Source: Gemmatimonadales bacterium (GTDB lineage Bacteria > Gemmatimonadota > Gemmatimonadetes > Gemmatimonadales > GWC2-71-9). Taken from it: DNA of 64,000 nt. A program made the translations under genes and the position numbers. The notes under the pieces were generated by a model. It saw nothing but the letters and a program-made list of their open reading frames with translations. It had not been told where the DNA came from and searched no databases. The DNA is taken from NCBI GenBank assembly GCA_035760645.1, contig DASTSO010000024.1, positions 87,331 to 151,330 of the forward strand. Reading direction: 5' to 3'. Shown piece after piece: positions 1,908-54,173 of this stretch (the stretch's first letter is position 1; every line of letters starts with the position of its first letter).

Positions 1908-2868
1908 AGGTCTCGCGGAACCACTCGGCGAAGCGCCGCACCCCCTCGGGGAAGGCGGTGCGCGGGGCGTAGCCCAGCACGCGGCCCGACTTGGTGAGAT
2001 CGGCGAAGGTGTGCTGCACGTCGCCCGGCTGCATCGGCGCCCACTGGATCACGGGCTCGGCGCCGAGCGCGGCGGCCACCTCGGCGACCATGTCGCGCAG
2101 CGGCACCGGGCGATTGCCGCCCAGGTTGAACGCCTCCATGCCGACCGGCGCCGTGGCGGTCCAGTCGAGCGCGGCGACGACGCCCGCGGTGATGTCGTCA
2201 CAGTAGGTGTAGTCGCGCGCCTGGCTGCCGTCGCCGAACAGGGTGAGCGGCTTCCCCTCGGCCATCCGTCGCATGAAGGCGTGAATGGCGAGGTCGGGCC
2301 GCTGGCGCGGCCCGTAGACGGTGAAGAACCGGAGCGCCGCGGCGCGGAAGCCCACGATCGGGGCGAGCGCCGAGAGGAAGAGCTCGCCCCCGCGCTTGGT
2401 GGCGGCGTAGGGCGAGACGGGCTCGACGGCCGGCGCGTCCTCGCGGAAGGGCGCCGGCGTCGAGTCGCCGTAGACCGACGAGCTCGAGGCGAAGACGACG
2501 CGCGACACGCCCGCGCGCCGCGCGGCCTCGAGCACGGCCGCGGTGCCGGTGAGGTTCACGCGCGCATAGCCGACGGGGTCGAGGATCGAGGGCCGCACCC
2601 CCGCCTTCGCGGCGAGATGGACGAGCACCGTCTCGGGGGTGAGCAGGCGCTCGAGCCGCTCGCCGTCGAGGAGGTCGAACTCGTGGAACTCGAGCGCGTC
2701 CTCGCCGAAGCGCGCGGCGACGTCGGCGAGATTGAGCTCCTTGAGCGACCGGTCGTAGAAGGGATCGAAGTTGTCGATGCCCACCACCTCGTCCCCACGC
2801 GCGAGCAGCGCCTCGACGAGGTGGGAGCCGATGAAGCCCGCGGCGCCGGTGACGACGACGCGCGTCAC
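1891..2868 (-). CDS. NAD-dependent nucleotide-sugar epimerase (UDP-glucuronate 4-epimerase-like)
   Basis: Last 325 codons of the 1281-aa run-on ORF; GTG at 2866-2868 overlaps ugd stop (GTGA); [13 protein letters not shown] Rossmann motif, SPYAATK (Y-x3-K). Confidence 0.8.
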
Positions 2869-4220
2869 GGGCAGCGCCGGCCGATGCCGTGGTACTCGAA
2901 GCCGGCGTGGGCCATGCGGTCGGGCTGATACAGGTTGCGGCCGTCGAGGATGAGCGGCCGGCGCAGGAGGCCCCGCAGGCGGACGAAGTCGGGGTTGCGG
3001 TAGACCAGCCACTCGGTCACGACCACGAGCGCGTCGGCGCCGTGCGCGGCGCTGTAGGGGTCGGCGGCATAGAGCACGCGGTCGCCGAAGATGGCGCGCG
3101 CCGACTCGATCGCCTTCGGGTCGTGGGCCTGCACGCGCGCGCCGGCGGCGAGGAGCCCCTCGACCAGCGGGATCGCCGGGCTCTCGCGCATGTCGTCCGT
3201 CTCGGCCTTGAAGGCGAGGCCCCAGATACCGACCGTCCGGCCACTGAGGTCGGGCCGGCGGCCGTCGCCGTTGCCGCCCCCGTTCGCGCCGGCGTCGTCG
3301 CCGAGGAAGCGATAGGCCTTCTCGAGCAGCACCAGCTTCTGGCGCTCGTTGACCGCCTCGACGCTCTTGAGGAGGTCGAGCTCGACGCCCCGCTCGTGCG
3401 CGGTGCGGATGATGGCCTTGACGTCCTTCGGGAAGCAGCTGCCGCCGTAGCCCGGGCCCGGGTAGAGGAACGCCCGCCCGATCCGCTGGTCGGAGCCGAT
3501 GCCGTTGCGGACCATCATGATGTCGGCGCCCACCGTCTCGCAGAAGTTCGCGAGCTGGTTCATGAACGAGATGCGCGTGGCGAGCATCGCGTTCGCGGCG
3601 TACTTCGTCACCTCGGCCGAGGCGATGTCCATGAAGAGGACGCGGTCGCCGCCCTGGCGGGTGAACGGCGCGTACAGCTCGGCCATGCACTCGCGCGCCT
3701 CGTCGCTGTCGACGCCGATCACGACCCGGTCCGGCTTCATGAAGTCGTCGATCGCCGCCCCTTCCTTCAGGAACTCGGGGTTGGCGCAGACGTGGAACGG
3801 CACGTCGGTCTCGGAGGCGACCGCGGCGCGCACCTTCTCGGCCGTGCCCACCGGCACGGTGGACTTGGTCACGACGACCTTCGGCGCGTTCATCGCCCGG
3901 CCGATGCCCTTCGCCACGGCGAGCACGTGCTGCAGGTCGGCCGAGCCGTCCTCGCCGGGCGGGGTGCCGACGGCGATGAAGACCACGCGCGACTGCTCGA
4001 CCGCCTCGCGCAGGTCGGTGGTGAAGCGGAGCCGGCCCTCGGCCTGGTTCCGCCGCACCATGTCCTCGAGCCCCGGCTCGTAGATCGGGATCTCGTTGTT
4101 CTTCAGCCGGGCGATCTTGCGCTCGTCCACATCCACGCAGACGACGTCGTTGCCAGTCTCGGCGAAGCACGCCCCCGCCACCAACCCCACGTATCCGCTG
4201 CCGATCACCGCCACGTGCAT
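2865..4220 (-). CDS. ugd: UDP-glucose 6-dehydrogenase
   Basis: 451-aa [18 protein letters not shown]-terminus, GGSCFPKD catalytic-Cys motif. Confidence 0.9.
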
Positions 4221-4232
4221 GCCGCCGCTCCC

Positions 4233-5519
4233 TTACCGCGGCTTCGCCAGCACGTGCCGGGTGTCCACGACCAGGGTCGCGTGGTCCCGCACCAGCCGGT
4301 AATCGATGTCCGAGTGGTCGGTCACGACCATGACCAGATCGGCGGCGGCCAGCGCCTCGGGCGTCAGCGCCACGGAGGCGAACCGGTGGCCGTCTTCGGT
4401 GAACGACGGCACGTGGGGATCGTGGTAGCTGACCTGCGCCCCCTGCTGCTCCAGGAGCTTGATGATGTCGAGCGCCGGGCTCTCGCGCAGGTCGTCGATG
4501 TCGCGCTTGTAGGCGACGCCGAGGACGAGCACGCGTGCGCCGCGCATCGCCTTGCCCCGGCCGTTGAGCGCCTCGACCGCCTTGCGCACCCAGAAGAGCG
4601 GCATCTCGGTATTCACCTCGCCGGCGAGGTCGATGAAGCGGGTCTTGTAGTTGAGCCCGCGCATCTTCCAGGCGAGGTAGTGGGGGTCGATCGGGATGCA
4701 GTGGCCGCCGAGTCCGGGGCCCGGCAGGAACTTCATGAAGCCGAACGGCTTGGTGGCGGCCGCCTCGATCACCTCCCAGACGTCCACGCCGAGCTTGTCG
4801 CAGACGATCGCCATCTCGTTGACGAGCCCGATGTTCACGCTGCGGAAGGTGTTCTCGAGCAGCTTGACGAGCTCCGCCGCCTCGGTGCTCGAGACCGGCA
4901 CCAGCGTGTCGATCGCCGGCTGGTAGAGCGCCTCCGCGACGCGCACGCAAGCCGGGGTGATGCCGCCGACCACCTTCGGGGTGTTCTTCGTGTGGTAGGT
5001 CGGATTGCCCGGGTCGACGCGCTCGGGGCTGAAGGCGAGGAAGAAGTCCTCGCCCACCCGGAGCCCGGTGCTCTCGAGCGCCGGCAGCATGATCTCGCGG
5101 GTGGTGCCCGGGTAGGTGGTGCTCTCGAGGATGATCGCCTGGCCCCGGCGGAGCGTCGCCTTGACCGCCTCGGTCGCGGCCTGGATGTAGCTCATGTCCG
5201 GGTCCTTGAACTTCGACAGCGGCGTCGGCACGCAGATCGAGATCGCGTCGGGCTCGCTCAGACGCGACGCGTCGGTCGTCGCCGTGAAGCGGCCGGCGCA
5301 GACCACCTCGCGCAGCTGCGCGTCCGTGACGTCCTTGATGTGCGACGTGCCCGCGTTGAGGCCGTCGACCACCCGCTGGTTGACGTCGTACCCGAGCACA
5401 TGGTAGCCGGCCTTCGCCAGCTCCACCGCCAGCGGGAGACCGACGTATCCCAGTCCCACGATCCCGAAGAGCGCCTCCCGGCGCTCCGCCTTCTGGATCA
5501 GCTCGTCCGCGACCGACAT
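4233..5519 (-). CDS. UDP-N-acetyl-D-glucosamine 6-dehydrogenase family (WbpA/WecC/TviB-like)
   Basis: 428-aa ORF, IVGLGYVGLPLAVELA Rossmann motif, GGHCIPIDP catalytic-Cys motif; WbpA-type call rests on the adjacent WlbA/C/B-like genes. Confidence 0.75.
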   Translation of the reverse strand: MSVADELIQKAERREALFGIVGLGYVGLPLAVELAKAGYHVLGYDVNQRVVDGLNAGTSHIKDVTDAQLREVVCAGRFTATTDASRLSEPDAISICVPTPLSKFKDPDMSYIQAATEAVKATLRRGQAIILESTTYPGTTREIMLPALESTGLRVGEDFFLAFSPERVDPGNPTYHTKNTPKVVGGITPACVRVAEALYQPAIDTLVPVSSTEAAELVKLLENTFRSVNIGLVNEMAIVCDKLGVDVWEVIEAAATKPFGFMKFLPGPGLGGHCIPIDPHYLAWKMRGLNYKTRFIDLAGEVNTEMPLFWVRKAVEALNGRGKAMRGARVLVLGVAYKRDIDDLRESPALDIIKLLEQQGAQVSYHDPHVPSFTEDGHRFASVALTPEALAAADLVMVVTDHSDIDYRLVRDHATLVVDTRHVLAKPR

Positions 5520-5641: not shown

Positions 5642-6703
5642 TCAGTACTCGAGCGGCAGCGCGACGCGGCGTCCGTCGCGCGCGGCGAGATAGATCGCCA
5701 CCAGCAGCTCGAGCGAGCGGAGCCCTTCGCGCCCATCGGTTTCCGGCGCCGCCTCGCCCCGCAGCGCAGCGATCACGTTGGCGTAGTAGGCCGTGTGGCC
5801 GAAGCCGTAGACCGAGGTGGTCTCGTAGCTCGCCTGTTGCACCAGAGCATCACTCGGGTCCGGGGTGGCGAACTCCCAGGTTTCGATCTTGTTGACCGCG
5901 ACCCCGCCCACGCGCACCGTGCCGTGCTCGCCCAGGACGGTGATGCTGCCTTCGTAGTTGCGGGGATAGGTGAGCATCGTCACGCTCATCGTCCCCAGGG
6001 CCCCGGTGCGCCAGCGGATCGCCGCCACCCCGGTGTCCTCGACCTGGATGTTGCGGGCCAGCGTCGCCGTGTAGGCCTGCACGCTCTCGACGGGCCCGAT
6101 GAGCCAGTCGAGGAGGTCGACATAGTGCGAGGCCTGGTTCATGAACGCCCCGCCGTCGAACTCCCAGGTGCCGCGCCACGCCGCGCTGTCGTAGTAGCTC
6201 TGCGGGCGGCTCCAGAAGACGTTCACCGAGACCATGAAGATCCGGCCGAAGCGCCCCTGCTCCATCGCCCCCTTGAGCAACTGGAGGGTGGCGTTGCGGC
6301 GGTTCTGCTTGACCACGAAGAGGTGCACCCCGGCGACGTCGCAGGCATGGACCATCGCCTTGCCGTCCTGCCAGCGGGTCGCCATCGGCTTCTCGGTCAT
6401 GACGTGCCGACCCGCCGCGGCCACCCGGATCGCCTGCTCGGCATGCAGCCCGCTCGGGGTGGCGAGCACGACGATGTCCGCGTCGCAGCCGGCGAGCAGG
6501 GCGTCGAGGGACGCGAAGCCCGGCGCCCCGGTGCGCGCCACCGCCGCGGCGAGCGCCGCGGGGTCGATGTCGCACACGCCCACCAGTTCGGCCGCCTCCC
6601 GGTGCTGGTCGAGCGCGTCGAAGTGGTTCTTGGAGATCCGCCCGCAGCCCACCAGGGCGAAGCGAACCTTCCGGTCGGTCACGATCGGCTTGGTAATGAA
6701 CAT
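5642..6703 (-). CDS. Gfo/Idh/MocA oxidoreductase, WbpB/WlbA-like (UDP-GlcNAcA 3-dehydrogenase candidate)
   Basis: C-terminal 353 codons of the 788-aa ORF; RFALVGCGRISKNH Rossmann motif. ATG at 6703. An in-frame GTG at 6736 overlaps the upstream stop (GTGA) and is an equally plausible start. Confidence 0.7.
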   Translation of the reverse strand: MFITKPIVTDRKVRFALVGCGRISKNHFDALDQHREAAELVGVCDIDPAALAAAVARTGAPGFASLDALLAGCDADIVVLATPSGLHAEQAIRVAAAGRHVMTEKPMATRWQDGKAMVHACDVAGVHLFVVKQNRRNATLQLLKGAMEQGRFGRIFMVSVNVFWSRPQSYYDSAAWRGTWEFDGGAFMNQASHYVDLLDWLIGPVESVQAYTATLARNIQVEDTGVAAIRWRTGALGTMSVTMLTYPRNYEGSITVLGEHGTVRVGGVAVNKIETWEFATPDPSDALVQQASYETTSVYGFGHTAYYANVIAALRGEAAPETDGREGLRSLELLVAIYLAARDGRRVALPLEY

Positions 6704-8046: not shown

Positions 8047-11907
<3,861 letters not shown>

Positions 11908-14217: not shown

Positions 14218-14247
14218 GGGCCCGCACGACCTCCGTCGTGCGGGCCC
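14218..14247 (+). terminator. 13-bp GC hairpin downstream of rpmB
   Basis: GGGCCCGCACGAC-CTCC-GTCGTGCGGGCCC; only a weak T-run follows (GCGCCGTTTC). Confidence 0.5.
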
Positions 14248-14273
14248 GCGCCGTTTCGGGGTGCGAGGGCCAG

Positions 14274-14297
14274 AAAAAAGGGGACCCGAAGGTCCCC
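14274..14297 (-). terminator. rho-independent terminator of the rplQ operon
   Basis: Minus strand reads GGGGACC-TTCG-GGTCCCC followed by TTTTTT; 37 nt downstream of the rplQ stop. Confidence 0.7.
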
Positions 14298-14334
14298 TTC
14301 CCGTCCTTCCCACCACGGAGCGCTGGAGCGCCGG

Positions 14335-14691
14335 TCACTCGGCGAGCAGCTCGATGCGGGCGACGTCGGCCCCGTCGCCGGGCCGGTGGCCGAGCTTGAG
14401 GATCCGGGTGTAGCCGCCGGGGCGCGCGGCGAAGCGCGGCCCGATCTCGGCGAAGAGGCGGCCGAGGACCTCGCGGTCCTTGATCTTGCGCTCGACGAGC
14501 CGGCGGGCGTGCAGATCGCCCCGGCGCGCGAGGGTGATCAGCTTCTCGGCGAACGGCCGCAGCTCCTTGGCCTTGGCCTCGGTCGTCACGATCTGGCCGT
14601 GGGCGAAGAGGCTGGTGGCCATGTTGTTCAGCAGGGCCCGCTTGTGGCTCGAGGTCCGGCTCAGCTGCCGACCCTTGGCACGATGACGCAT
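14335..14691 (-). CDS. rplQ: 50S ribosomal protein L17
   Basis: [28 protein letters not shown]...; start overlaps the rpoA stop by 1 nt (TAATG). Confidence 0.95.
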
Positions 14692-22898: not shown

Positions 22899-22982
22899 GC
22901 CGAAGTGGTGGAATTGGTAGACGCGCTGCGTTCAGGGCGCAGTGGGCGCAAGCCCGTGTGGGTTCGAGTCCCACCTTCGGCA
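22899..22982 (+). tRNA. tRNA-Leu (anticodon CAG), type II long variable arm, CCA not encoded
   Basis: Acceptor GCCGAAG/CTTCGGC plus discriminator A; anticodon stem CTGCG/CGCAG with loop TTCAGGG; T arm GTGGG-TTCGAGT-CCCAC; variable arm TGGGCGCAAGCCCGT. Confidence 0.9.
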
Positions 22983-25930: not shown

Positions 25931-26731
25931 ATGGCCCAGCACGAGACGGTCCGCATCGCGGCGGTGAGCGATCTCCACTACGGACGCACCGGCATGGCGC
26001 CGCTGCTCCCCTTCCTCGCGCACGTCGTCGAGCAGGCCGACATCCTCGCCCTCTGCGGCGACCTCACCGATCACGGGCTGCCCGAGGAGGCGCGCGGGCT
26101 CGCCCGCGAGCTCAGCGGCTTCAAGATCCCGATGGTCGGCGTGCTGGGGAACCACGACTACGAGTCGGACCAGGTGGACGACCTGAAGACGATCTTCGCC
26201 GACCACCGCATCCGCATCCTCGACGGCGACGCGATCGAGATCCGCGGGATCGGCTTCGGGGGCGTGAAGGGCTTCTGCGGCGGCTTCGGCCGACGGGCGC
26301 TCGCCCCGTGGGGCGAGCCGGCGATCAAGGCGTTCGTCCAGGAGGCTCTCGGCGAGGCGCTCAAGCTCGAGACCGCGCTCAGCAAGCTGCGCAGCGAGCG
26401 GAAGGTGGCGCTGCTGCACTACGCCCCGATCCAGGCCACGATCGAGGGCGAGCCGCCCGAGATCTGGCCCTTCCTGGGCTCGACCCGCCTGGAGGACCCG
26501 ATCAACCGGCACACGGTGGACGTGGTCTTTCACGGACATGCCCACCATGGCTGCCCCGAAGGGGCGACCCTGGCGGGCATCCCGGTCTACAACGTCTCGA
26601 TCACCCTCCTGCAGCACCACTTCCCCGACCGCCCGCCCTTCCGCGTGACCGAGCTGGCGATCGACGTCGCGGCGAAGGAGGCACGGGCGGCGGATCCGCT
26701 GGCGCAGATCGCGAGCGCCCGCCCCGCGTGA
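25931..26731 (+). CDS. calcineurin-like metallophosphoesterase
   Basis: ATG at 25931; motifs VSDLHYG, CGDLTD, GNHDYE, LLHYAP, FHGHAHH. Confidence 0.8.
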   Translation: MAQHETVRIAAVSDLHYGRTGMAPLLPFLAHVVEQADILALCGDLTDHGLPEEARGLARELSGFKIPMVGVLGNHDYESDQVDDLKTIFADHRIRILDGDAIEIRGIGFGGVKGFCGGFGRRALAPWGEPAIKAFVQEALGEALKLETALSKLRSERKVALLHYAPIQATIEGEPPEIWPFLGSTRLEDPINRHTVDVVFHGHAHHGCPEGATLAGIPVYNVSITLLQHHFPDRPPFRVTELAIDVAAKEARAADPLAQIASARPA

Positions 26732-26749
26732 GCCCGCCCCGCGCGGGCT
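26731..26749. terminator. short hairpin spanning both convergent stop codons
   Basis: AGCCCGC-CCCGC-GCGGGCT; 7-bp stem, no U-tract; weak. Confidence 0.3.
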
Positions 26750-28175
26750 AGCCGGCCGCGACCATGCCGTGCGCCCCGCCGGGGACGCCGATCTCGGTCA
26801 TCTTGCGCAGGTCCAGCACCTCGTCAGCCTGCTCGGCGGGGAGGACGTGGTCGCGCTTGACGAGGTCGCGGATGAGGACCCCCTCCTTGACCGACTGTTT
26901 GCTCAGCTCGGCGGCCTTCGTGTAGCCGATGTGCGGCATGAGCGCCGTGGCGAGCGCGGCGGAGCGCTCGACCCAGTAGGCGCACATCGCCTCGTTGGCC
27001 TGGATCCCCTTCACGGTGCGCTCGGTGAGCGTCGTCGCGGCGTTGGTGAGGATCTGCATCGAGAGCAGCAGGTTGTGGGCGATGACGGGCATCATCACGT
27101 TGAGCTCGAGCTGCCCGTGCTCGCTCGCGATGGCCACCGTGGTGTCGCAGCCCATCACCTGGAAGCAGACCTGGTTGACCATCTCGGGGATCGACGGATT
27201 GATCTTCCCCGGCATGATCGAGCTGCCCGGCTGGACCGCGGGCAGCGTGATCTCGTCGATGCCGGTGCGCGGGCCCATGACCATGAGCCGCAGGTCGCTG
27301 GCGATCTTGCTGAGGTCGATGGCGAGGCCGCGCAGCGTGGCGCTGAAGGCCGCCGCGTCGCCCATGCTCTGCATGAGCTGGATGCGGTCCTGGCCGACCC
27401 GGAGGTCGAGTCCCGTGATCTGCTTGAGGTGCTTGTTCATGAGCGCGGGGTACTCCCGCTCCACCGTCACCCCGGTGCCCACCGCGCTGCCGCCGATGCC
27501 GAGGTCGCGCAGGTAGTCGGCCGCTTCCCGTACGCGCCGGAGCGCGCGGTCCATCGAGCCGGCGTAGGCCGTGAACTCCTGCCCGAGCCGGATCGGCATC
27601 GCGTCCTGCAGGTGGGTGCGCCCCGCCTTGACGATGTGGTCGAACTCCTTCCCCTTCGCCGCGAGCGCGTCGCGCAGCCCCTCGAACGCCTGAACGAGCG
27701 CGGGCAGCTGCGCCAGCGCCGAGAGGCGGATGTTCGTCGGGATCGTGTCGTTGGTGGACTGCGCCATGTTGACGTGATCGTTCGGATGCACCGGCTTGTA
27801 CTCGCCGCGCTTCCCGCCGAGGAGCTCGTTGGCGCGGTTCGCCAGCACCTCGTTCACGTTCATGTTGTGGCTCGTGCCGGCACCCGCCTGGTAGGGGTCG
27901 ACGACGAACTGCGCGTCGTGCCGGTGGGCGAGGACCTCGTCGGCGGCCTGGACGATGGCGTCGGCGAGCTTGGCGTCGAGCCGGCCGGTCTCCTTGTGCG
28001 TGAGCGCGGCGGCCTTCTTGATCCACACCTGCGACTGGACGAACGGCCAGAGCGGCTTCAGCCCGCTGATCGGGAAGTTCTCCAGCGCGCGCACGGTCTG
28101 GATGCCGTAGAGGGCATCGGCGGGAACGGGCTTCTCGCCGAGGGGGTCCTTTTCGAGTCGAGTGTTCGTGGTCAT
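26748..28175 (-). CDS. aspA: aspartate ammonia-lyase (class II fumarase/aspartase family)
   Basis: 475-aa ORF; GSSIMPGKINP signature; QAGAGTSHNMNVNEV and VNQVCFQVMG look closer to aspartase than to FumC as I recall them. Confidence 0.8.
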   Translation of the reverse strand: MTTNTRLEKDPLGEKPVPADALYGIQTVRALENFPISGLKPLWPFVQSQVWIKKAAALTHKETGRLDAKLADAIVQAADEVLAHRHDAQFVVDPYQAGAGTSHNMNVNEVLANRANELLGGKRGEYKPVHPNDHVNMAQSTNDTIPTNIRLSALAQLPALVQAFEGLRDALAAKGKEFDHIVKAGRTHLQDAMPIRLGQEFTAYAGSMDRALRRVREAADYLRDLGIGGSAVGTGVTVEREYPALMNKHLKQITGLDLRVGQDRIQLMQSMGDAAAFSATLRGLAIDLSKIASDLRLMVMGPRTGIDEITLPAVQPGSSIMPGKINPSIPEMVNQVCFQVMGCDTTVAIASEHGQLELNVMMPVIAHNLLLSMQILTNAATTLTERTVKGIQANEAMCAYWVERSAALATALMPHIGYTKAAELSKQSVKEGVLIRDLVKRDHVLPAEQADEVLDLRKMTEIGVPGGAHGMVAAG

Positions 28176-30402: not shown

Positions 30403-30626
30403 TCGGAGCAGTCGCCGAGCGGGTAGACGGTCCCGCAGTTCCGGCATGGATTCTTGCACCCCATCGCGCGCGAGGTGACGGGGTGGCCGCAGCGCTGGCA
30501 CGTGGGCGGAACGGCGGGACGGCGGGACGGCGGGAGGTCCGCTCCGGTGCGTGGAGCTACTCCCTGCGAGGAGGCCACCTCCCGGCGTCCCGCCTCTCCC
30601 GCCGTCCCGCCCTCAGCCGAGCCCAT
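30399..30626 (-). CDS. candidate Cys-rich micro-protein (up to 75 aa; conserved-looking part CQRCGHPVTSRAMGCKNPCRNCGTVYPLGDCSD)
   Basis: In-frame part of ORF 30399..30932. The last 34 codons are about 90 percent G/C at position 3. The N-terminal half coincides with repeat copy A, and GC3 is lower there. An internal ATG would give a 21-aa MGCKNPCRNCGTVYPLGDCSD. Confidence 0.4.
   Translation of the reverse strand: MGSAEGGTAGEAGRREVASSQGVAPRTGADLPPSRRPAVPPTCQRCGHPVTSRAMGCKNPCRNCGTVYPLGDCSD
30504..30612. repeat. GGCGGGAC-type inverted-repeat element, copy A
   Basis: Plus-strand arm GGGCGGAACGGCGGGACGGCGGGACGGCGGGAGG (30504-30537) and complementary arm CCTCCCGGCGTCCCGCCTCTCCCGCCGTCCCGCCC (30578-30612). 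On the minus strand it starts right after the MBL stop: TGAGGGCGGGACGGC. Confidence 0.75.
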
Positions 30627-31269
30627 ACGCCCCGGTGAGGAACGGATTCGTCGTGCGCTCGGTGCCGATCGTGGTGTCGGGGCCGTGGCCGCTGTGGACG
30701 ATGGTGGCGTCGGGGAGCGAGAGGAGCTGCTCGCGGATCGAGCGCAGCAGCGTCGCCGGGTCGCCGCCGGGGAGGTCGGTCCGGCCGACCGAGCCGGCGA
30801 AGAGGACGTCGCCGGCGAAGACGCGGCCGTGGCCGACGAACGCCACGCTGCCGGGCGAGTGGCCCGGCGCGTGCCGCACCTCGAACTCGTACGCGCCGAC
30901 GCGCACCCGCTGCCCGTGCGCGAGCTCGCCATCGGGCGCGGGCGGCACGGCGAGCGGCCGCCCGACCCACGCGCCGAACTGCGGCAGCGCGTCGTAGATC
31001 GGCCGGTCGGCCGGGTGCAGATGCACCGGCACGCCGGTCGCGTCCTTCACGGCTTGGACGCCGAGCACGTGGTCGACGTGGGCGTGGGTGAGCCAGACCG
31101 CGGTCAGCGTCCAGCCGCGGCGCGCGAGCTCGGCGAGGAAGCGCTCGGCCTCCTCGCCCGGGTCGACCATGACCGCCTCGCGTGTGGCGGGATCGGCGAC
31201 GAGGTAGCAGTTCTGGACGAACTGCCCGTTCGGAATCCGGACGACGACCGGGCCCTGCTCAGCCGACAC
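30613..31269 (-). CDS. MBL-fold hydrolase (hydroxyacylglutathione hydrolase / glyoxalase II-like)
   Basis: 218-aa ORF, THAHVDH motif, HAPGHSPG; start overlaps the trxB stop by 11 nt. Confidence 0.8.
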   Translation of the reverse strand: MSAEQGPVVVRIPNGQFVQNCYLVADPATREAVMVDPGEEAERFLAELARRGWTLTAVWLTHAHVDHVLGVQAVKDATGVPVHLHPADRPIYDALPQFGAWVGRPLAVPPAPDGELAHGQRVRVGAYEFEVRHAPGHSPGSVAFVGHGRVFAGDVLFAGSVGRTDLPGGDPATLLRSIREQLLSLPDATIVHSGHGPDTTIGTERTTNPFLTGAYGLG

Positions 31270-36022: not shown

Positions 36023-37450
36023 TCAGACGGCGCCCTCGGGGAACTCCTGCAGCATCCGCTTGACGTCGGCCATGAAGCGGTCGGCGTCGGCGCCGTCGAC
36101 GATCCGGTGGTCGAAGGCGAGCGAGAGCATCCCCTTGAGGCGGATGCCCAGCGTGTCGGCGCCGTCCACCGTGACCACGGTCGGCTGCTTCTCGATCGCG
36201 CCGACGCAGAGGATGGCCGCCTGCGGCTGGTTGATGATCGGCGTGCCGATCACCGAGCCGAAGACGCCGGGGTTCGTGATCGTGAAGGTCCCCTTCTGCA
36301 CGTCGTCGGGCGAGAGCTTCTTCGTGCGCGCCCGCTCGCCCAGATCGTTGATCGCGCGGGCGATGCCCAGGAGACTCAGCTCGTCGGCGTGCTTGACGAC
36401 GGGGACGATGAGCCCCCAGTCGAGCGCGACGGCGATGCCGAGGTTGATGTCGCGCCGCAGCACCGTGCTCTCGCCCGAGACGGCGGCGTTGAGCGTCGGG
36501 TGCTGGCGGAGGCTGTCGGCCACGGCCTTCGCGATGAAGGCGAGGTAGGTCAGGTTCACGCCGCGCTCGGCGTACTCCGCCTTCTTCCTCGCCCGGAGCT
36601 GCTGGACGCGCGTGTAGTCGATCTCGAAGAAGGTGTTGACGTGCGGCGAGAGCCGGCGCGACAGCACCATGTGGTCGGCGGTGAGCTTCCGGATGCGCGA
36701 CCAGGGCTCGACCTTGTCGCCCTCCCAGGCCTCGACCTGCGGGGCCGCGGGCAGGGCGGCCGGGGCCGCGGTCGCCGGCGCGCCGGGCGCCGCCGGAGCG
36801 CCCGGCGCGGCGGGCGCCTGGGGCGCGGCCGGCTGGGCCTGGGGCGCGGTCGCGGCGCCGCTCTCGATGTAGCTGAGGACGTCGTTCTTGGTGACCCGAC
36901 CCGCGACGCCGCTGCCCGGGATCGCCTCGAGGTTCAGGTTGTGCTCGGCCGCCATCTTCCGCACGAGCGGCGTCGAGCGGCGCCGCAGCCGCTCCTCGAG
37001 CGACTCGACCCCGCCCACCTGGTCCATGCTGCGCGTGGCGGGCACCGCCGGGGGCGGCGCCGCCGGGTTGGTGATGCCGCCGTAGCCGCTCTTCGGTTCG
37101 TCGGCCGCGACGGGCGTCGCCGGCGCAGCCGGGGCCGCCGGGGCCGCCGGGGCCGCAAGCGCCGCCGGAGCCGTGGCCGGAGCGGCCGGCGCGGGCGCGG
37201 CGGCGCCGGCCTCGGTCTCGATCCGCGCGACGACGGTGTTCACGGCCACCGTCTCGCCCTCCTTCACGATGATCTCGGCCAGCACGCCGGCATTCGGCGC
37301 CGGGATCTCGGCGTCGACCTTGTCGGTCGAGATCTCGAAGATCGGCTCGTCCCGCTTCACGGTGTCGCCCACCTGCTTGAGCCACTTCGAGAGCGTCCCC
37401 TCGGCGATCGACTCGCCCATCTGGGGCATGATGACGTCAATGCGGGCCAT
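36023..37450 (-). CDS. 2-oxoacid dehydrogenase complex E2 (dihydrolipoamide acyltransferase)
   Basis: 475-aa ORF; lipoyl domain EISTDKVDAEIPAP, Ala/Pro linkers, PSBD, catalytic DHRIVDGA. Confidence 0.92.
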   Translation of the reverse strand: MARIDVIMPQMGESIAEGTLSKWLKQVGDTVKRDEPIFEISTDKVDAEIPAPNAGVLAEIIVKEGETVAVNTVVARIETEAGAAAPAPAAPATAPAALAAPAAPAAPAAPATPVAADEPKSGYGGITNPAAPPPAVPATRSMDQVGGVESLEERLRRRSTPLVRKMAAEHNLNLEAIPGSGVAGRVTKNDVLSYIESGAATAPQAQPAAPQAPAAPGAPAAPGAPATAAPAALPAAPQVEAWEGDKVEPWSRIRKLTADHMVLSRRLSPHVNTFFEIDYTRVQQLRARKKAEYAERGVNLTYLAFIAKAVADSLRQHPTLNAAVSGESTVLRRDINLGIAVALDWGLIVPVVKHADELSLLGIARAINDLGERARTKKLSPDDVQKGTFTITNPGVFGSVIGTPIINQPQAAILCVGAIEKQPTVVTVDGADTLGIRLKGMLSLAFDHRIVDGADADRFMADVKRMLQEFPEGAV

Positions 37451-37486: not shown

Positions 37487-37529
37487 GGGCGGGACGGCGG
37501 GAAGGGCGGATGGCTCCGGCCGTCCCGCC
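37487..37529. repeat. GGCGGGAC-type inverted-repeat element, minimal copy B (intercistronic E1beta/E2)
   Basis: GGCGGGACGGC (37488-37498) pairs with GCCGTCCCGCC (37519-37529) around a 20-nt loop. The minus strand reads TAGGCGGGACGGC starting in the E1beta stop codon. Confidence 0.7.
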
Positions 37530-38506
37530 TAGTAATCAGCCAGCCAGCGAACCGCCTTCACGATGTCCGACGTCTGGGGGAGCACGAAGTCCTCGAGCGC
37601 CGGCGCGTACGGGAGCGGCACGTCGTGCGCCGCGACGCGCTTCACGGGGGCGTCGAGCCACTCGAAGCACAGGTCGTTGATGCGCGCCGTGATCTCGCCG
37701 GCGATGCCGCCGGTGACGGTGTCCTCGTGCACGATCAGGACGCGGTTCGTCTTCTTCACCGTGGCGACGATCGCCGCATCGTCCATCGGCAGCAGCGAGC
37801 GCAGGTCGAGCACCTCGACGCTGATCCCGTGCTCCTGCTGGAGCTGCTCGGCCGCCTCGAGCGCCTTCCACACCGTGGCGGCGTAGGTGATGATCGAGAC
37901 GTCCGTGCCCGCGCGCGCCACCCGCGCCTGGCCGATCGGCACGAGGTGCTCGCCGGCGGGGAGCGTCTCCTTGATGCGCCGGTAGAGGTACTTGTGCTCG
38001 AAGAAGAGCACGCAGTCCTCGTCGCGGATCGCGCTCTTGATGAGCCCCTTCGCGTCCGCGGGCGTCGAGGGATAGACGATCTTGAGCCCCGGCGTGTGGA
38101 GGAACGCCGCTTCGGGGTTCTGCGAGTGGAACGGGCCGCCGCGCACGTAGCCGCCCGAGGGCCCGCGCACCACCATCGGGCACGGCAGGAACGCCCGGTA
38201 GCGCGCCGTCGCGACGTAGTTCGTCAGCATGTCGTAGGCGCAGGAGATGAAGTCGATGAACTGCATCTCCACCACCGGCCGCATCCCCATGTGCGCCGCC
38301 CCGGCGGCCGCGCCGACGAAGCCCGCCTCGCTGATCGGCGTGTCGATGACGCGCCGCTCGCCGAAGCGCTCGAGGAGCCCTTCGGTGACCTTGAACGCGC
38401 CGCCGTAGGCCCCGATGTCCTCGCCCAGCAGGAAGACGTCGGAATCGCGCTCCATCTCCTCGCTGATCCCCTGGCGGATCGCCTCGAGGAAGGTGACCTC
38501 AGACAT
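37529..38506 (-). CDS. 2-oxoacid dehydrogenase E1 component, beta subunit
   Basis: 325-aa ORF; MSEVTFLEAIRQGISEEM, GEDIGAYGGAFKVT. Confidence 0.92.
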   Translation of the reverse strand: MSEVTFLEAIRQGISEEMERDSDVFLLGEDIGAYGGAFKVTEGLLERFGERRVIDTPISEAGFVGAAAGAAHMGMRPVVEMQFIDFISCAYDMLTNYVATARYRAFLPCPMVVRGPSGGYVRGGPFHSQNPEAAFLHTPGLKIVYPSTPADAKGLIKSAIRDEDCVLFFEHKYLYRRIKETLPAGEHLVPIGQARVARAGTDVSIITYAATVWKALEAAEQLQQEHGISVEVLDLRSLLPMDDAAIVATVKKTNRVLIVHEDTVTGGIAGEITARINDLCFEWLDAPVKRVAAHDVPLPYAPALEDFVLPQTSDIVKAVRWLADY

Positions 38507-39687: not shown

Positions 39688-39799
39688 GGCGGGACGGCGG
39701 GAAGGCGGGACGGCGGGAGCGCCCGACGGCAAACGGGCCCCCGGTGTCGTCACCGGAGGCCCGTTGGGAGAGCGGTTTCCCGCCGTTCCGCCCTCCCGC

Positions 39800-39800
<1 letters not shown>
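39688..39800. repeat. GGCGGGAC-type inverted-repeat element, full copy C
   Basis: Arm GGCGGGACGGCGGGAAGGCGGGACGGCGGGAGC (39688-39720). Inner hairpin GGGCCCCCGGTG-TCGT-CACCGGAGGCCC (39735-39762). Complementary arm CCCGCCGTTCCGCCCTCCCGCC (39779-39800). The minus strand reads TAGGCGGGAGGGCGG starting in the hppA stop. Confidence 0.8.
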
Positions 39801-42343
<2,543 letters not shown>

Positions 42344-42412
42344 CGAGACTCTCCTGAATTGACGGGCATGCATGCGCCGCGGGTTGGAGGGCGGCGCGGA
42401 GGGGGACCAGCG

Positions 42413-49374: not shown

Positions 49375-49438
49375 GGGCCGCGTGCGTTCCGATGGTCGGG
49401 AACGGCACAGCGGCGGCGCCCGCCGGCGCCCGCCGGCG

Positions 49439-49467
49439 TTGACGCTGCCCCGGCCGGCCGATAGGTT
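49439..49467 (+). promoter_or_regulatory. candidate promoter of erpA (TTGACG-17 nt-TAGGTT)
   Basis: Read directly, 50 nt upstream of the erpA ATG. Confidence 0.4.
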
Positions 49468-49516
49468 TTCCGGAGCGATACGACCGACGATCTCGGTTTA
49501 CTTCAAGGAGTCACGC

Positions 49517-49885
49517 ATGAGCACCACCGAGCAGCAGGCGCCCACGAGCGGCTTTCAGCTCATCCTCTCGGACCGCGCGGCGGCAGAGGTGAGGAAGTTC
49601 ATCGCCGCCGAGCAGGTGCCGGCGGAGACGGCGGGGCTCCGGGTCAGCGTCCTGCCGGGCGGCTGCTCGGGCTTCAAGTACAGCCTGAACATCGAGGAGC
49701 GTCCGCTGGAGGACGACCTGGTGCAGGAGATCAACGGCGTGCGCGTGTTGGTGGACGGCTTCAGCGCCCAGTACCTCAACGGCGTCACGATCGACTACAC
49801 GTCGAGCATGCAGGGCTCGGGGTTCACGTTCACCAATCCCAACGCCACCGGCGGCTGCGGCTGCGGGAGCAGCTTCACCGCCTGA
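49517..49885 (+). CDS. erpA: iron-sulfur cluster insertion protein (HesB/IscA/ErpA family)
   Basis: ATG preceded by AAGGAG; GCSGFKY and C-terminal CGCGSSF motifs; 122 aa. Confidence 0.9.
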   Translation: MSTTEQQAPTSGFQLILSDRAAAEVRKFIAAEQVPAETAGLRVSVLPGGCSGFKYSLNIEERPLEDDLVQEINGVRVLVDGFSAQYLNGVTIDYTSSMQGSGFTFTNPNATGGCGCGSSFTA

Positions 49886-51632: not shown

Positions 51633-52526
51633 ATGCGCGAGCTGTTCATCGGGGTGGACGTCGGCGGCACCAAGACGGTAGCCGCCGTGGGCGACGCGAC
51701 GGCGGAGCTGGGCCGCGCCGACGGCCCGGGCGCGGCGGTGCGGCCGGGCCGTGCGCTCGTCTCGGCGGGGACGATCACCGAGGTGGCGCGCCGCGCGCTC
51801 GCCGCGGCCGGCGCGATGCACGCGGCGGCAATGGTGGTGGGCGCCGCGGGCGCGGGCCGCGAGCCCGAGCGCACCGACCTGCGCGAGGCGCTCCGCGCCG
51901 AGGGGCTCGCCGAGCGCCTGGTCGTCACGACCGACATCGAGATCGCCCTCGCGGCGGCGTTCGGGCCCGGGCCGGGGATCGTGGTGAGCGCGGGCACCGG
52001 GAGCATCGCGGTGGGCCGTGATAGCCGGGGCGCGCTCCACCGCATCGGCGGCTACGGCTGGCAGATGGGCGACGAGGGGAGCGGCTACGCGATCGGCCGC
52101 GCGGCGCTCGGTGCGGTGGGCCGCGCCGCCGACGGCCGGAGCGCGCCGACGGCGCTCCAGGAGCGCGTCCTCGCCGCCACCCGCAGCGCGGACCTCGACG
52201 CCCTGGTGCGCTGGGCCGCGAGCGCGGGGCCGGCGGAGGTGGCGAGCCTCGCGCCGCACGTCCTCGCCGTCGCGGCCGAGGGCGACATCGTGGCGCGCGG
52301 GATCGCCGACTACGCCGCGCGCGAGCTCTCGCAGCTCGCCAAGCAGCTCCTCCCCGCCCTCGACGCCGACCGCCCCGTTCCCGTCGCCGTCACCGGCGGC
52401 CTCCTCGCCCCCGCCCGGCTCCTCTACGGCACCGTCCTCGAGAAGCTGCGTGAAGACTCCGACCTCGCCGTCCGCGATCAGCCGATCGACGCGGCGGCGG
52501 GGGCGCTGGCAATGGCGAGGAGCTAG
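51633..52526 (+). CDS. BadF/BadG/BcrA/BcrD-type ATPase (N-acetylglucosamine / MurNAc kinase family)
   Basis: 297-aa ORF; IGVDVGGTKT, GTGSIA, GWQMGDEGSG. Confidence 0.75.
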   Translation: MRELFIGVDVGGTKTVAAVGDATAELGRADGPGAAVRPGRALVSAGTITEVARRALAAAGAMHAAAMVVGAAGAGREPERTDLREALRAEGLAERLVVTTDIEIALAAAFGPGPGIVVSAGTGSIAVGRDSRGALHRIGGYGWQMGDEGSGYAIGRAALGAVGRAADGRSAPTALQERVLAATRSADLDALVRWAASAGPAEVASLAPHVLAVAAEGDIVARGIADYAARELSQLAKQLLPALDADRPVPVAVTGGLLAPARLLYGTVLEKLREDSDLAVRDQPIDAAAGALAMARS

Positions 52527-52610
52527 GCGGAGCGGCGGGAGCGAAAGGACACGGGCCTCCGGTGACGTCACCGGAGGCCCGTGCGTTTGCTGAGCTTCCT
52601 GCCGTCCCGG

Positions 52611-52611
<1 letters not shown>
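52526..52611. repeat. GGCGGGAC-type inverted-repeat element, full copy D; fills the convergent intergenic gap
   Basis: Arm GGCGGAGCGGCGGGAGC (52526-52542). Perfect 28-nt palindrome GGGCCTCCGGTGAC|GTCACCGGAGGCCC (52553-52580). Arm CCTGCCGTCCCGGC (52598-52611). Each outer arm begins with the G of a TAG stop codon on its own strand. Confidence 0.8.

Positions 52612-54173
<1,562 letters not shown>

Follow-up and report, generated by a model that had tools for sequence, protein, structure and literature searches.

Related repeat systems

Dispersed arrays of a G-rich heptamer, GGGAATC in Xanthomonas and GGGGAYT in Nostoc, have been described, and a G-quadruplex role was proposed for them (Rehm 2015, PMC4692102). 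The arrays consist of 2–26 units, with four preferred, are biased to lie within 50 bp of a stop codon or to overlap it, and form 70–75 convergent pairs capable of folding into stem-loops per Xanthomonas genome; their sites are conserved between species, but their length and unit number are not (PMC4692102). The heptamer repeats of Xanthomonas are the closest published description of the elements analyzed here, four long hairpins with arms of tandem 8-nt units, GGCGGGAN, found in a 64,000-nt stretch of the genome of a Gemmatimonadales bacterium (contig DASTSO010000024.1, hereafter the window). We designated the hairpins copies A, B, C, and D and consider them probable gene-less copies of a dispersed family of foldback (giant hairpin) elements of Gemmatimonadota. 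Like the heptamers, they are dispersed, non-coding, head-to-tail G-rich arrays of variable unit number that form convergent pairs in proximity to stop codons. The window unit, however, has eight nucleotides instead of seven and comes from another phylum; nearly all window copies are paired and start 0–1 nt from the stop, and PF05635 genes, with which such arms are associated below, were not mentioned by the authors of the heptamer study.

The second relevant system is formed by the intervening sequences (IVS) of 23S rRNA, selfish inserts with terminal inverted repeats whose stem of approximately 28 bp is cut by RNase III (PMC4990558). Processing of the stem by this enzyme was shown for the Coxiella IVS (PMC4990558), and IVS occur with or without the S23p open reading frame (ORF) (Burgin 1990; Ralph and McClelland 1993; Warrier 2016, PMC4990558). 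The likeness to tandem-unit hairpins comprises terminal inverted repeats forming a long stem (at least about 20 bp), the existence of gene-bearing and gene-less forms, PF05635 as the cargo, a sporadic distribution of the selfish type, and no known mobility gene. The differences are that IVS reside in rRNA helices 9, 25, and 45, whereas the window copies lie between protein genes, at stop codons, in a window devoid of rRNA, and that we did not find IVS stems described as tandem-unit arrays, which the window arms are.

The repetitive extragenic palindromes (REP), with their bacterial interspersed mosaic elements (BIME) and REP doublets forming hairpins (REPIN), are likewise extragenic G+C-rich palindromes located near gene ends without target-site duplication (Nunvar 2010, PMC2817692). 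Further similarities are a GT[AG]G motif at one end of each window copy and the presence, in a Planctomycete, of a REP-associated tyrosine transposase (RAYT) together with a REP whose half-stem is repeated in tandem. Unlike REP, the arms in the window are multi-unit arrays within one hairpin of 40–110 nt, the GT[AG]G head is not significant outside stop contexts, and no cognate RAYT is known for Gemmatimonad genomes. With MITEs (miniature inverted-repeat transposable elements) and eukaryotic Foldback elements the hairpins share terminal inverted repeats and the coexistence of gene-less copies with rarer gene-bearing ones. The terminal inverted repeats of the Drosophila Foldback are built of short tandem units. 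Unlike for MITEs, neither a target-site duplication nor a transposase was found, and the PF05635 cargo is not a known recombinase. Finally, intrinsic terminators also form a G+C-rich stem-loop past the stop codon, and copy C has a U-rich tail; however, no U tract follows copies A, B, and D, the length of the stems greatly exceeds what termination requires, the window copies share sequence, and many hairpins of this kind lie between co-transcribed genes.

Anatomy of the four hairpins

All four sites were paired as inverted repeats in which tandem GGCGGGAN units faced N'TCCCGCC units, each arm containing two to four of them. The initial annotation had listed four such copies, each with a G-rich unit arm and a complementary C-rich arm. 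All four stood, with the bounds of copies B and D read here as in Table 1, and the outer arms of copy D (52526–52544 and 52593–52611) proved degenerate, approximately 13 of 20 positions being complementary. The double unit GGCGGGASGGCGGGA, searched with up to two mismatches, matched 16 times in the window versus 4.1 ± 2.1 times in shuffled sequences, and 14 of these matches fell within the four hairpin sites. The single 8-mer GGCGGGAN was not enriched in the window (14 found, 12.1 expected), the GC content of which was approximately 72%. Fold energies of the copies ranged from -36 to -96 kcal/mol, and their z scores relative to dinucleotide-shuffled sequences from -4.4 to -7.1. None of the four hairpins matched Rfam 15 at the gathering score, the sole match in the window being a tRNA (22899–22982).

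As noticed initially, copies C and D share a near-identical inner hairpin. Their inner palindrome of 32 nt, absent elsewhere in the window, differed at two positions (two differences over 28–32 nt), and overall 69 of 82 positions were identical in the two copies, the maximum among shuffles being 64. Since C and D have 30 of 32 inner bases in common and A to C have the same 8-nt unit, they are to be regarded as copies and not as convergent structures. A GT[AG]G end was present exactly once in every window copy, as GTGG on the plus strand in A and B and as GTAG on the minus strand in C and D. The quadruplex motif reported for the plus strand of copy C (G3-N5 repeated three times) was present. 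In copy D, the stop codons of both flanking genes paired at the base of the stem. That the G-rich arm comes first when read along the upstream gene's strand is uninformative, because the same is true of both strands in any inverted repeat.

Stop-codon junctions

The arm started 0–1 nt from the stop codon at all five gene ends in the window, in agreement with the claim that it begins in or right after the stop. The junctions read TGA/GGGCGGGAC, TAG/GCGGGAC, TAG/GCGGGAG, TAG/GCGGAGC, and TAG/CCGGGAC (the slash marks the end of the stop codon). Hence, four of the five stops were TAG, with the G doubling as the first base of the unit, and the fifth was TGA. The two clearest canonical terminators of the window (downstream of 14335–14691 and 49382–49885) began approximately 28–39 nt past the stop, so the direct abutment is a trait of the hairpin family. 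When the distance to stop codons was checked in related Gemmatimonad loci, the end of an ORF of 60 codons or more lay no more than 6 nt from 15 of 54 arm ends (arms of at least three units), as it did for 3.6% of positions drawn at random (odds ratio 10, p 6e-10). Together with the excess of double units and the identity of copies C and D, this result supports the initial view of a recurrent, dispersed inverted-repeat family with a tendency to start at stops.

It had also been suggested that hppA and the permease gene may owe their final codons and stop to the element. This was not supported for hppA: in orthologues without the element, the C-terminal tail of the protein was equally long, and the GCCGCGTAG that hppA shares with the permease gene is most simply Ala-Ala-stop because the genome has 72% GC. 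In relatives, hppA was not adjacent to the E1alpha gene, and the comparison was thus confined to the C-terminal tails of the protein. A TAG trinucleotide target was rejected as the full explanation of the junctions: the window has 411 TAG, of which only 12 are called stops. TAG was present at about 12 of 20 junctions of GGCGG-type arms in other loci (by-eye tally), some of which read ATAG or TGATAG, as though the element had brought the TAG.

Several other junctions and arrays were noted. An exception to the abutment being confined to the family was a small hairpin at window positions 26729–26750, where convergent genes lie 16 nt apart and GCCCGC cccgc GCGGGC spans the space from stop to stop; it illustrates the compactness of the intergenic space. 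At 14240–14334 (minus strand), gene 14335–14691 is followed by a canonical terminator (GGGGACCTTCGGGTCCCC plus T6), upstream of which lies a G-rich, unit-like GGGAAGGACGGGAAGG without a complementary arm, which may be a decayed solo arm. In locus L199 (5604–5700), a hairpin occupies the whole rimM–trmD junction, leaving no spacer before or after it, TAA/GGCGGGATGGCGGTATGG ... CCGCC/G-TTG, with TTG being the trmD start. In L052 (994–1089, minus strand), an array of 12 units makes up the C-terminal tail of an ORF, pseudopilin leader peptides appear to begin within the C arm in L200 (3770–3800) and L076 (1185–1230), and in L130 an GGGAACCG hairpin seemingly lies in an N-terminal extension of E1alpha.

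Gain and loss at orthologous junctions

The presence/absence comparison suggested in the initial annotation was made at the E1beta–E2 junction (site of copy B), which was read in 80 metagenome loci with E1beta orthologues (63–86% identical). Many of these junctions were empty, with a spacer of 8–14 nt, e.g., TGA GGAGACTGC ATG. In others, a hairpin was inserted precisely between the stop codon and the GGAG Shine-Dalgarno sequence, with arm units other than that of the window, such as GGCAAGGT, ACGGACG, CGGATGG, GTCAGAC, GGTGTCAG, GTCATCA, GGCGGTCA, and GGCTATG; the hairpin of locus L145 had the C/T-rich arm first. Filled and empty junctions were interleaved on the E1beta tree. Loci L157 (filled) and L160 (empty) were as similar as two empty loci compared with each other (93.1% identity of nucleotides and 98.5% of amino acids), and their alignment revealed a clean and precise insertion of 69 nt without target-site duplication. 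The window junction at 8658 was empty, with a TGATG stop–start overlap, and the orthologous junction in the Gemmatimonadales locus L096 was filled, TAA/GACGGGAAGG...hairpin...GGAG...ATG. No target-site duplication was detected in the comparisons of filled and empty sites. The interleaving and the two pairwise comparisons therefore demonstrate that the elements are gained or lost over short evolutionary scales, one junction being occupied in several lineages.

An IS630-like insertion into TA targets was rejected, as most ends lacked TA and no duplication was seen. No transposase was found between neighbouring copies, where the ORFs were ordinary housekeeping genes.

In a lower clade of the E1beta tree (L117–L152), a small ORF with a hydrophobic stretch is located between E1beta and E2, replacing the hairpin; it overlaps the E1beta stop as TGATG, and the distance from the stop to E2 is 284–375 nt. 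A 10-nt unit, CCGCCCTCTA, builds intergenic hairpins (L176:5631–5718 and L174:10690–10776) and also forms a tandem array in the coding region of the E2 inter-domain linker, approximately 300–400 nt into the gene, on the same contigs (L167, L168, L173, L174, and L176).

Distribution and unit diversity

A three-unit pattern scan over 185,579 species genomes (one genome per species) returned at least 111 loci, and 37 of the matches listed were labelled Gemmatimonad. In most of the listed Gemmatimonad loci, the G-rich arm had its complement nearby, and some contained only a G-rich array; the core was variable, and a stop codon preceded many copies. The window proteins were syntenic with two loci from metagenome-assembled genomes (MAGs), L096 of Gemmatimonadales (71–87% identical) and L052 of Gemmatimonadota (43–76% identical), a synteny that places the window in Gemmatimonadota. 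Tandem Repeats Finder detected array periods of 7, 8, 9, and 10 nt across the loci, and its use in a pair search over the Gemmatimonad loci gave 22 candidate pairs, in part of which the units matched weakly or the gap was as wide as 300 nt. The rule of one genome, one 8-nt unit was rejected in view of these periods and of several unit families within one locus. Altogether, the tandem-unit foldback elements constitute a real dispersed family, and the window hairpins belong to a broader class in which the unit sequence and its period (7–10 nt) vary between genomes. Hairpins of this architecture are common in Gemmatimonadota.

Folding of the sense and antisense strands was compared for 14 co-directional hairpins. 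The differences, which lay between -5.5 and +8.5 kcal/mol, averaged close to 0, and G.U pairs were few; the arms are therefore complements at the DNA level, with no sign of compensatory evolution restricted to RNA. G.U pairs were dropped as a marker of the functional RNA strand, no strand bias being seen in the 14 hairpins.

In loci of four different Gemmatimonad MAGs (L011, L022, L107, and L114), a second palindromic family, GTGTCATCCCGAGCG[AC]AGCGAGGGATC...GATCCCTCG..., was nested in the cores of GGCGGGAN hairpins, which suggests composite elements or insertion into hairpin loops. Five contigs of one Acidobacteriota MAG, Holophagales UBA2201 (L013, L034, L039, L046, and L056), carried GGCGGGAA arrays, mostly solo and followed by other short-unit repeats. 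The unit is therefore not restricted to Gemmatimonadota.

PF05635 genes within tandem-unit arms

The broader class of units, the Xanthomonas analogue, and the link to PF05635 go beyond the initial annotation. All ten PF05635 genes examined were enclosed by tandem-unit inverted arms of 28–65 nt, 70–100% complementary and 380–640 nt apart. In the type II secretion system (T2SS) operon of a Gemmatimonadales MAG (L076), an arm of eight GGCGGGAN units starts at the gspE stop, GAGTAG/GCGGGAGG, and the complementary arm lies approximately 400 nt beyond it. The opposite-strand ORF of 117 aa between the arms matched PF05635 (E 1e-26) and, weakly, a bAvd-like protein; PF05635 has been recognised as Avd-like (PMC10053308). 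A second PF05635 gene was found between such arms in a Planctomycete MAG (L068).

A search for PF05635 homologues returned 1609 proteins at E <= 1e-10, some of them named four helix bundle protein of Gemmatimonadales bacterium. Hairpins probably break metagenome assemblies, since many of these genes are on contigs shorter than 2 kb, a good number of them measuring approximately 1 kb. Seven homologues on long contigs were chosen for inspection of the flanks, and all seven were enclosed by inverted tandem-unit arms (28–65 nt, 75–100% complementary) with the units GGCGGTAAG, GGCGGTCA, GGGGAGGAC, GGCGGACR, GACGGTCA, and GGGCGGACA. Several of the arms begin at stop codons: GAGTAG/GGCGGTCA with the far end ...GACCGCC/TCA, GGGTAG/GCGGGCGG, and CTGTAG/GCGGACGG. 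Gene-less arrays of the matching unit were also present in the PF05635 loci, and L200 has the window unit CTCCCGCCGTCCCGCC. L076 and L200 represent one T2SS junction in two genomes, with GGCGGGAN arms in the former and GGCGGACR arms in the latter; both arms therefore change together in place.

The sole solved structure matching the PF05635 protein, PDB 2GSC, is that of XCC0516 from Xanthomonas campestris. There, the PF05635 gene is located between the accB stop and the accC ATG, and its arms, GGGAATCGGGAGTGGAGAATCGGGAATCGG and CCCATTCCCCATTCTCGACTCCCTATTCCC, are of the GGGAATC type, 30 nt long and 87% complementary. Repeat no. 15 in the supplementary table of the heptamer study, listed as lying 6 nt from bccP (XCC0517) and overlapping the XCC0516 start (Rehm 2015, PMC4692102), is one arm of the hairpin enclosing this gene. 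Our literature searches returned no paper describing PF05635 genes within tandem-unit inverted arms. The same architecture is thus consistently associated with PF05635 genes in three phyla.

Gene context of the window copies

The genes flanking the window copies were identified by Pfam, which bore out the initial labels of metallo-beta-lactamase (MBL)-fold hydrolase, E1beta, H+-pyrophosphatase, and permease; the presumed kinase is a BadF/BcrA-type ATPase. Copy A separates the stop of the hydrolase gene from the putative GTG start of a GT4 glycosyltransferase gene. Copy B lies between the stop of E1beta (2-oxoacid dehydrogenase) and the Shine-Dalgarno sequence of E2, whose ATG at 37450 follows 37 nt on. 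Copy C is placed between the H+-pyrophosphatase (hppA) stop and E1alpha; on the minus strand it is followed by GUUGAUUUUCC and then by approximately 85 nt up to the E1alpha start. Copy D fills the space between the convergent stops of the ATPase and an amino-acid permease. The coordinates are collected in Table 1.

The idea of a terminator cassette fared poorly. A consensus terminator scan called none of the four copies, the U-rich tail GUUGAUUUUCC occurs only on copy C, and copy B sits within an operon junction. Three of the copies (A, B, and D, which lack a U tract) thus find no support as canonical terminators.

Table 1. Coordinates of the window hairpins, of the adjacent stop codons, and of the PF05635 loci examined.
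Feature	Coordinates	Strand	Details
Copy A	30504–30612	-	-96.2 kcal/mol, z -7.1
Copy A, G arm	30504–30535		4 units
Copy A, irregular inner stem	30536–30579
Copy A, C arm	30580–30612		4 units
Copy B (shortest)	37488–37529	-	2 + 2 units, 12-nt loop; -35.8 kcal/mol, z -4.7
Copy C (archetype)	39688–39800	-	-93.4 kcal/mol, z -6.3
Copy C, G arm	39688–39718		4 units
Copy C, inner palindrome	39732–39763	no strand	ACGGGCCCCCGGTGTCGTCACCGGAGGCCCGT, also in copy D
Copy C, C arm	39778–39800		3 units
Copy D	52524–52613	no strand	-69.5 kcal/mol on +, -58.8 kcal/mol on -
Copy D, inner perfect palindrome	52550–52583		17 + 17 nt
MBL-fold hydrolase stop TGA	30613–30615	-	gene 30613–31269; directly abuts copy A
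E1beta stop TAG	37529–37531	-	gene 37529–38506; G of the stop is the first arm base of copy B
H+-pyrophosphatase stop TAG	39800–39802	-	gene 39800–42373; G of the stop is the first arm base of copy C
BadF/BcrA-type ATPase stop TAG	52524–52526	+	gene 51633–52526; copy D
Amino-acid permease stop TAG	52611–52613	-	gene 52611–54173; copy D
PF05635 locus L076	707–1213
PF05635 locus L068	5860–6575
PF05635 loci L195, L197, L199–L203	around 2850–4510
PF05635 locus L204	1430–1872

Discussion

Each copy of the proposed foldback element is an inverted repeat with arms of (GGCGGGAN)n and the complement surrounding a variable core, which is a short loop (B), an irregular stem (A), or the 32-nt palindrome common to C and D. 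Gene-bearing members of the class enclose a gene for PF05635, a '23S rRNA intervening-sequence' or four-helix-bundle, Avd-like protein, and the window copies are probably their gene-less derivatives, related to them as gene-less IVS or MITEs are to gene-bearing ones. The class includes the GGGAATC repeats of Xanthomonas. The elements presumably spread by copying without a visible target-site duplication and would survive only where they do no damage, in the gap of a few bases that separates a stop codon from the following ribosome binding site or stop; in a compact genome no other place may be harmless, which would account for their persistence beside stops. As part of the transcript of the upstream gene, they would fold into near-perfect duplexes of 15–40 bp. 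By analogy with rRNA intervening sequences, the stems are probably cut by RNase III or block 3' exonucleases, and the upstream and downstream segments of the message may thereby be uncoupled or stabilised. We favor RNase III processing or an exonuclease barrier over termination, because no copy passes the terminator scan and B sits within an operon.

Several observations weigh against the foldback interpretation. No transposase, target-site duplication, or defined ends were found, and mobility is therefore deduced from the distribution only. As the window contains no PF05635 gene, the tie between gene-less and gene-bearing forms is one of architecture and unit, not of internal sequence. PF05635 genes might insert into pre-existing hairpins and not own the arms, and L197 and L199 also carry hairpins with units unlike those of their PF05635 arms. 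The PF05635 genes examined, with the exception of the Xanthomonas gene, were picked as homologues of one case. TAG accounts for four of the five junction stops versus 8 of 40 other stops in the window, an excess that the model leaves unexplained. Finally, the lack of a sense over antisense advantage in the 14 hairpins means that no signature of selection for an RNA fold is visible.

The main rival, to which we assign a low probability, regards the copies as REP/REPIN-type substrates of a RAYT (Y1 HUH) transposase, with the 8-nt unit as a tandem-amplified REP half-stem and the junction TAG as the RAYT-recognised GTAG head doubling as a stop codon; it is compatible with the PF05635 link. It draws on a Tepidisphaerales MAG (L088) encoding a 205-aa RAYT (phmmer E 2.5e-40 to E. 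coli RayT), the gene of which is flanked by four GTAG-GGCGGGAT REP hairpins, CGTAGGGCGGGATGnnAATCCCGCC (L088:5990–6760); in one REP the half-stem is in tandem, GTCCCGCC GTCCCGCC, which equals the window unit. One REP copy there (at 6367) lies within the RAYT reading frame. REP consensus sequences begin with GTAGG(G)CGGG in several enterobacteria (PMC2817692), the absence of target-site duplication is expected for HUH enzymes, one end of each window copy reads GT[AG]G, and this motif was found at 8 of 65 arm ends versus a background of 2.4%, a five-fold enrichment. Outside stop contexts, however, the head was found at 3 of 46 ends, which is not significant, and L088 was drawn into the data set by the same pattern and so carries an ascertainment bias. 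REP measure approximately 20–40 nt, whereas the window copies have 42–113 nt and arms of 2–4 units, and it is only the single unit that resembles the L088 REP stem. Each copy is a single giant hairpin with a pure G-unit and a pure C-unit arm and no REP pairs; units have one orientation per arm and do not form the alternating clusters of BIME or REPIN. A phmmer search for RAYT among the ORFs of all loci hit L088 only and found none in approximately 0.8 Mb of Gemmatimonad sequence fragments, an uninformative result as at most about one per genome is expected; the best 120 RAYT homologues had Planctomycete names only and no Gemmatimonad label, and a literature search on RAYT in Gemmatimonadota yielded nothing relevant. 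The RAYT-associated REP of Xanthomonas (GTAGGAGCGCGC..., PMC2817692) is unlike the GGGAATC arrays, and GTAG is absent from the element of X. campestris. Of the REP/BIME-like character suggested initially, the alternating arrangement thus found no support, but the Planctomycete RAYT with its GTAG-GGCGGGAT REPs keeps the idea alive.

Still less probable are host-selected RNA structures (terminators or 3'-end stabilisers) that evolved in place and resemble each other as converging G+C-rich stems. The position directly after stops, the very stable folds, the U-rich tail on copy C, and the resemblance of the inner palindromes of C and D to genuine terminators of this genome would fit such an origin; the shared inner bases and unit, the negative terminator scan, the absence of a G.U-type strand asymmetry, and the frequently empty orthologous sites do not, nor does the location of copies in operons (copy B and many relatives, in operons such as E1beta–E2, rimM–trmD, T2SS genes, and accB–accC). 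That the copies are simple-sequence repeats acting through a DNA or RNA G-quadruplex is hard to credit. The plus-strand motif of copy C, at least five G3 tracts on the mRNA strand of copy A, and the commonness of four units (A 4 + 4, C 4 + 3), as in the preference reported by Rehm 2015, would speak for it. The motif of copy C, however, is on the template strand, the mRNA arm having only three G3 tracts; the hairpin formed with the complementary arm (-36 to -96 kcal/mol) competes, and relatives at the same junction use units free of G tracts (e.g., GTCATCAG, GGTGTCAG, AATTGCGA) or place the C/T-rich arm first (L145). We regard as equally implausible the arrays being a mutational by-product that arises locally, by replication slippage and hairpin-templated copying, and never moves. 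The number of units does vary from arm to arm and from one orthologous site to another, the two arms at the T2SS junction co-evolve in place (GGCGGGAN in L076, GGCGGACR in L200), and the near-perfect complementarity of DNA fits template switching. Slippage would account for the growth of arrays but not for their origin at many sites: the same unit, and the inner palindrome of C and D, occur at unlinked loci of one genome, and entire arm–PF05635 gene–arm units are found within conserved operons. The similarity of C and D gives a first indication of near-identical full-length copies at unrelated sites.

The foldback interpretation can be extended, tentatively and with more doubt than confidence, to one widespread, unrecognised class of selfish elements comprising the tandem-unit foldbacks of Gemmatimonadota, Planctomycetota, and Xanthomonas. 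Its gene-bearing members would encode Avd-like PF05635 proteins, and the 23S rRNA IVS would be the particular case in which rRNA was the insertion site. The PF05635 pentamer may act on the repeated units, either spreading them or keeping the arms matched, and precise integration at the stop-codon side of junctions would explain the TAG/G excess. If this is true, the 7–9 nt arrays of several phyla and the 30-year-old question of IVS and S23p share one answer. The Avd protein, to which PF05635/S23p is related, belongs to diversity-generating retroelements.

The elements join three literatures, on G-rich short-unit repeats near stop codons, on REP-like palindromes, and on rRNA IVS with the orphan PF05635/S23p. 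A tractable setting is provided by operon junctions that contain a hairpin in one strain but none in a relative of 93% identity. Should the PF05635 link hold genome-wide, two questions become testable: the binding target of this very common protein, and the way in which the arms are produced and moved. The arrays can also be misread as fake C-terminal tails or leader peptides, as in L052 and L200, and the hairpins may reshape operon expression at E1beta–E2, rimM–trmD, and accB–accC.

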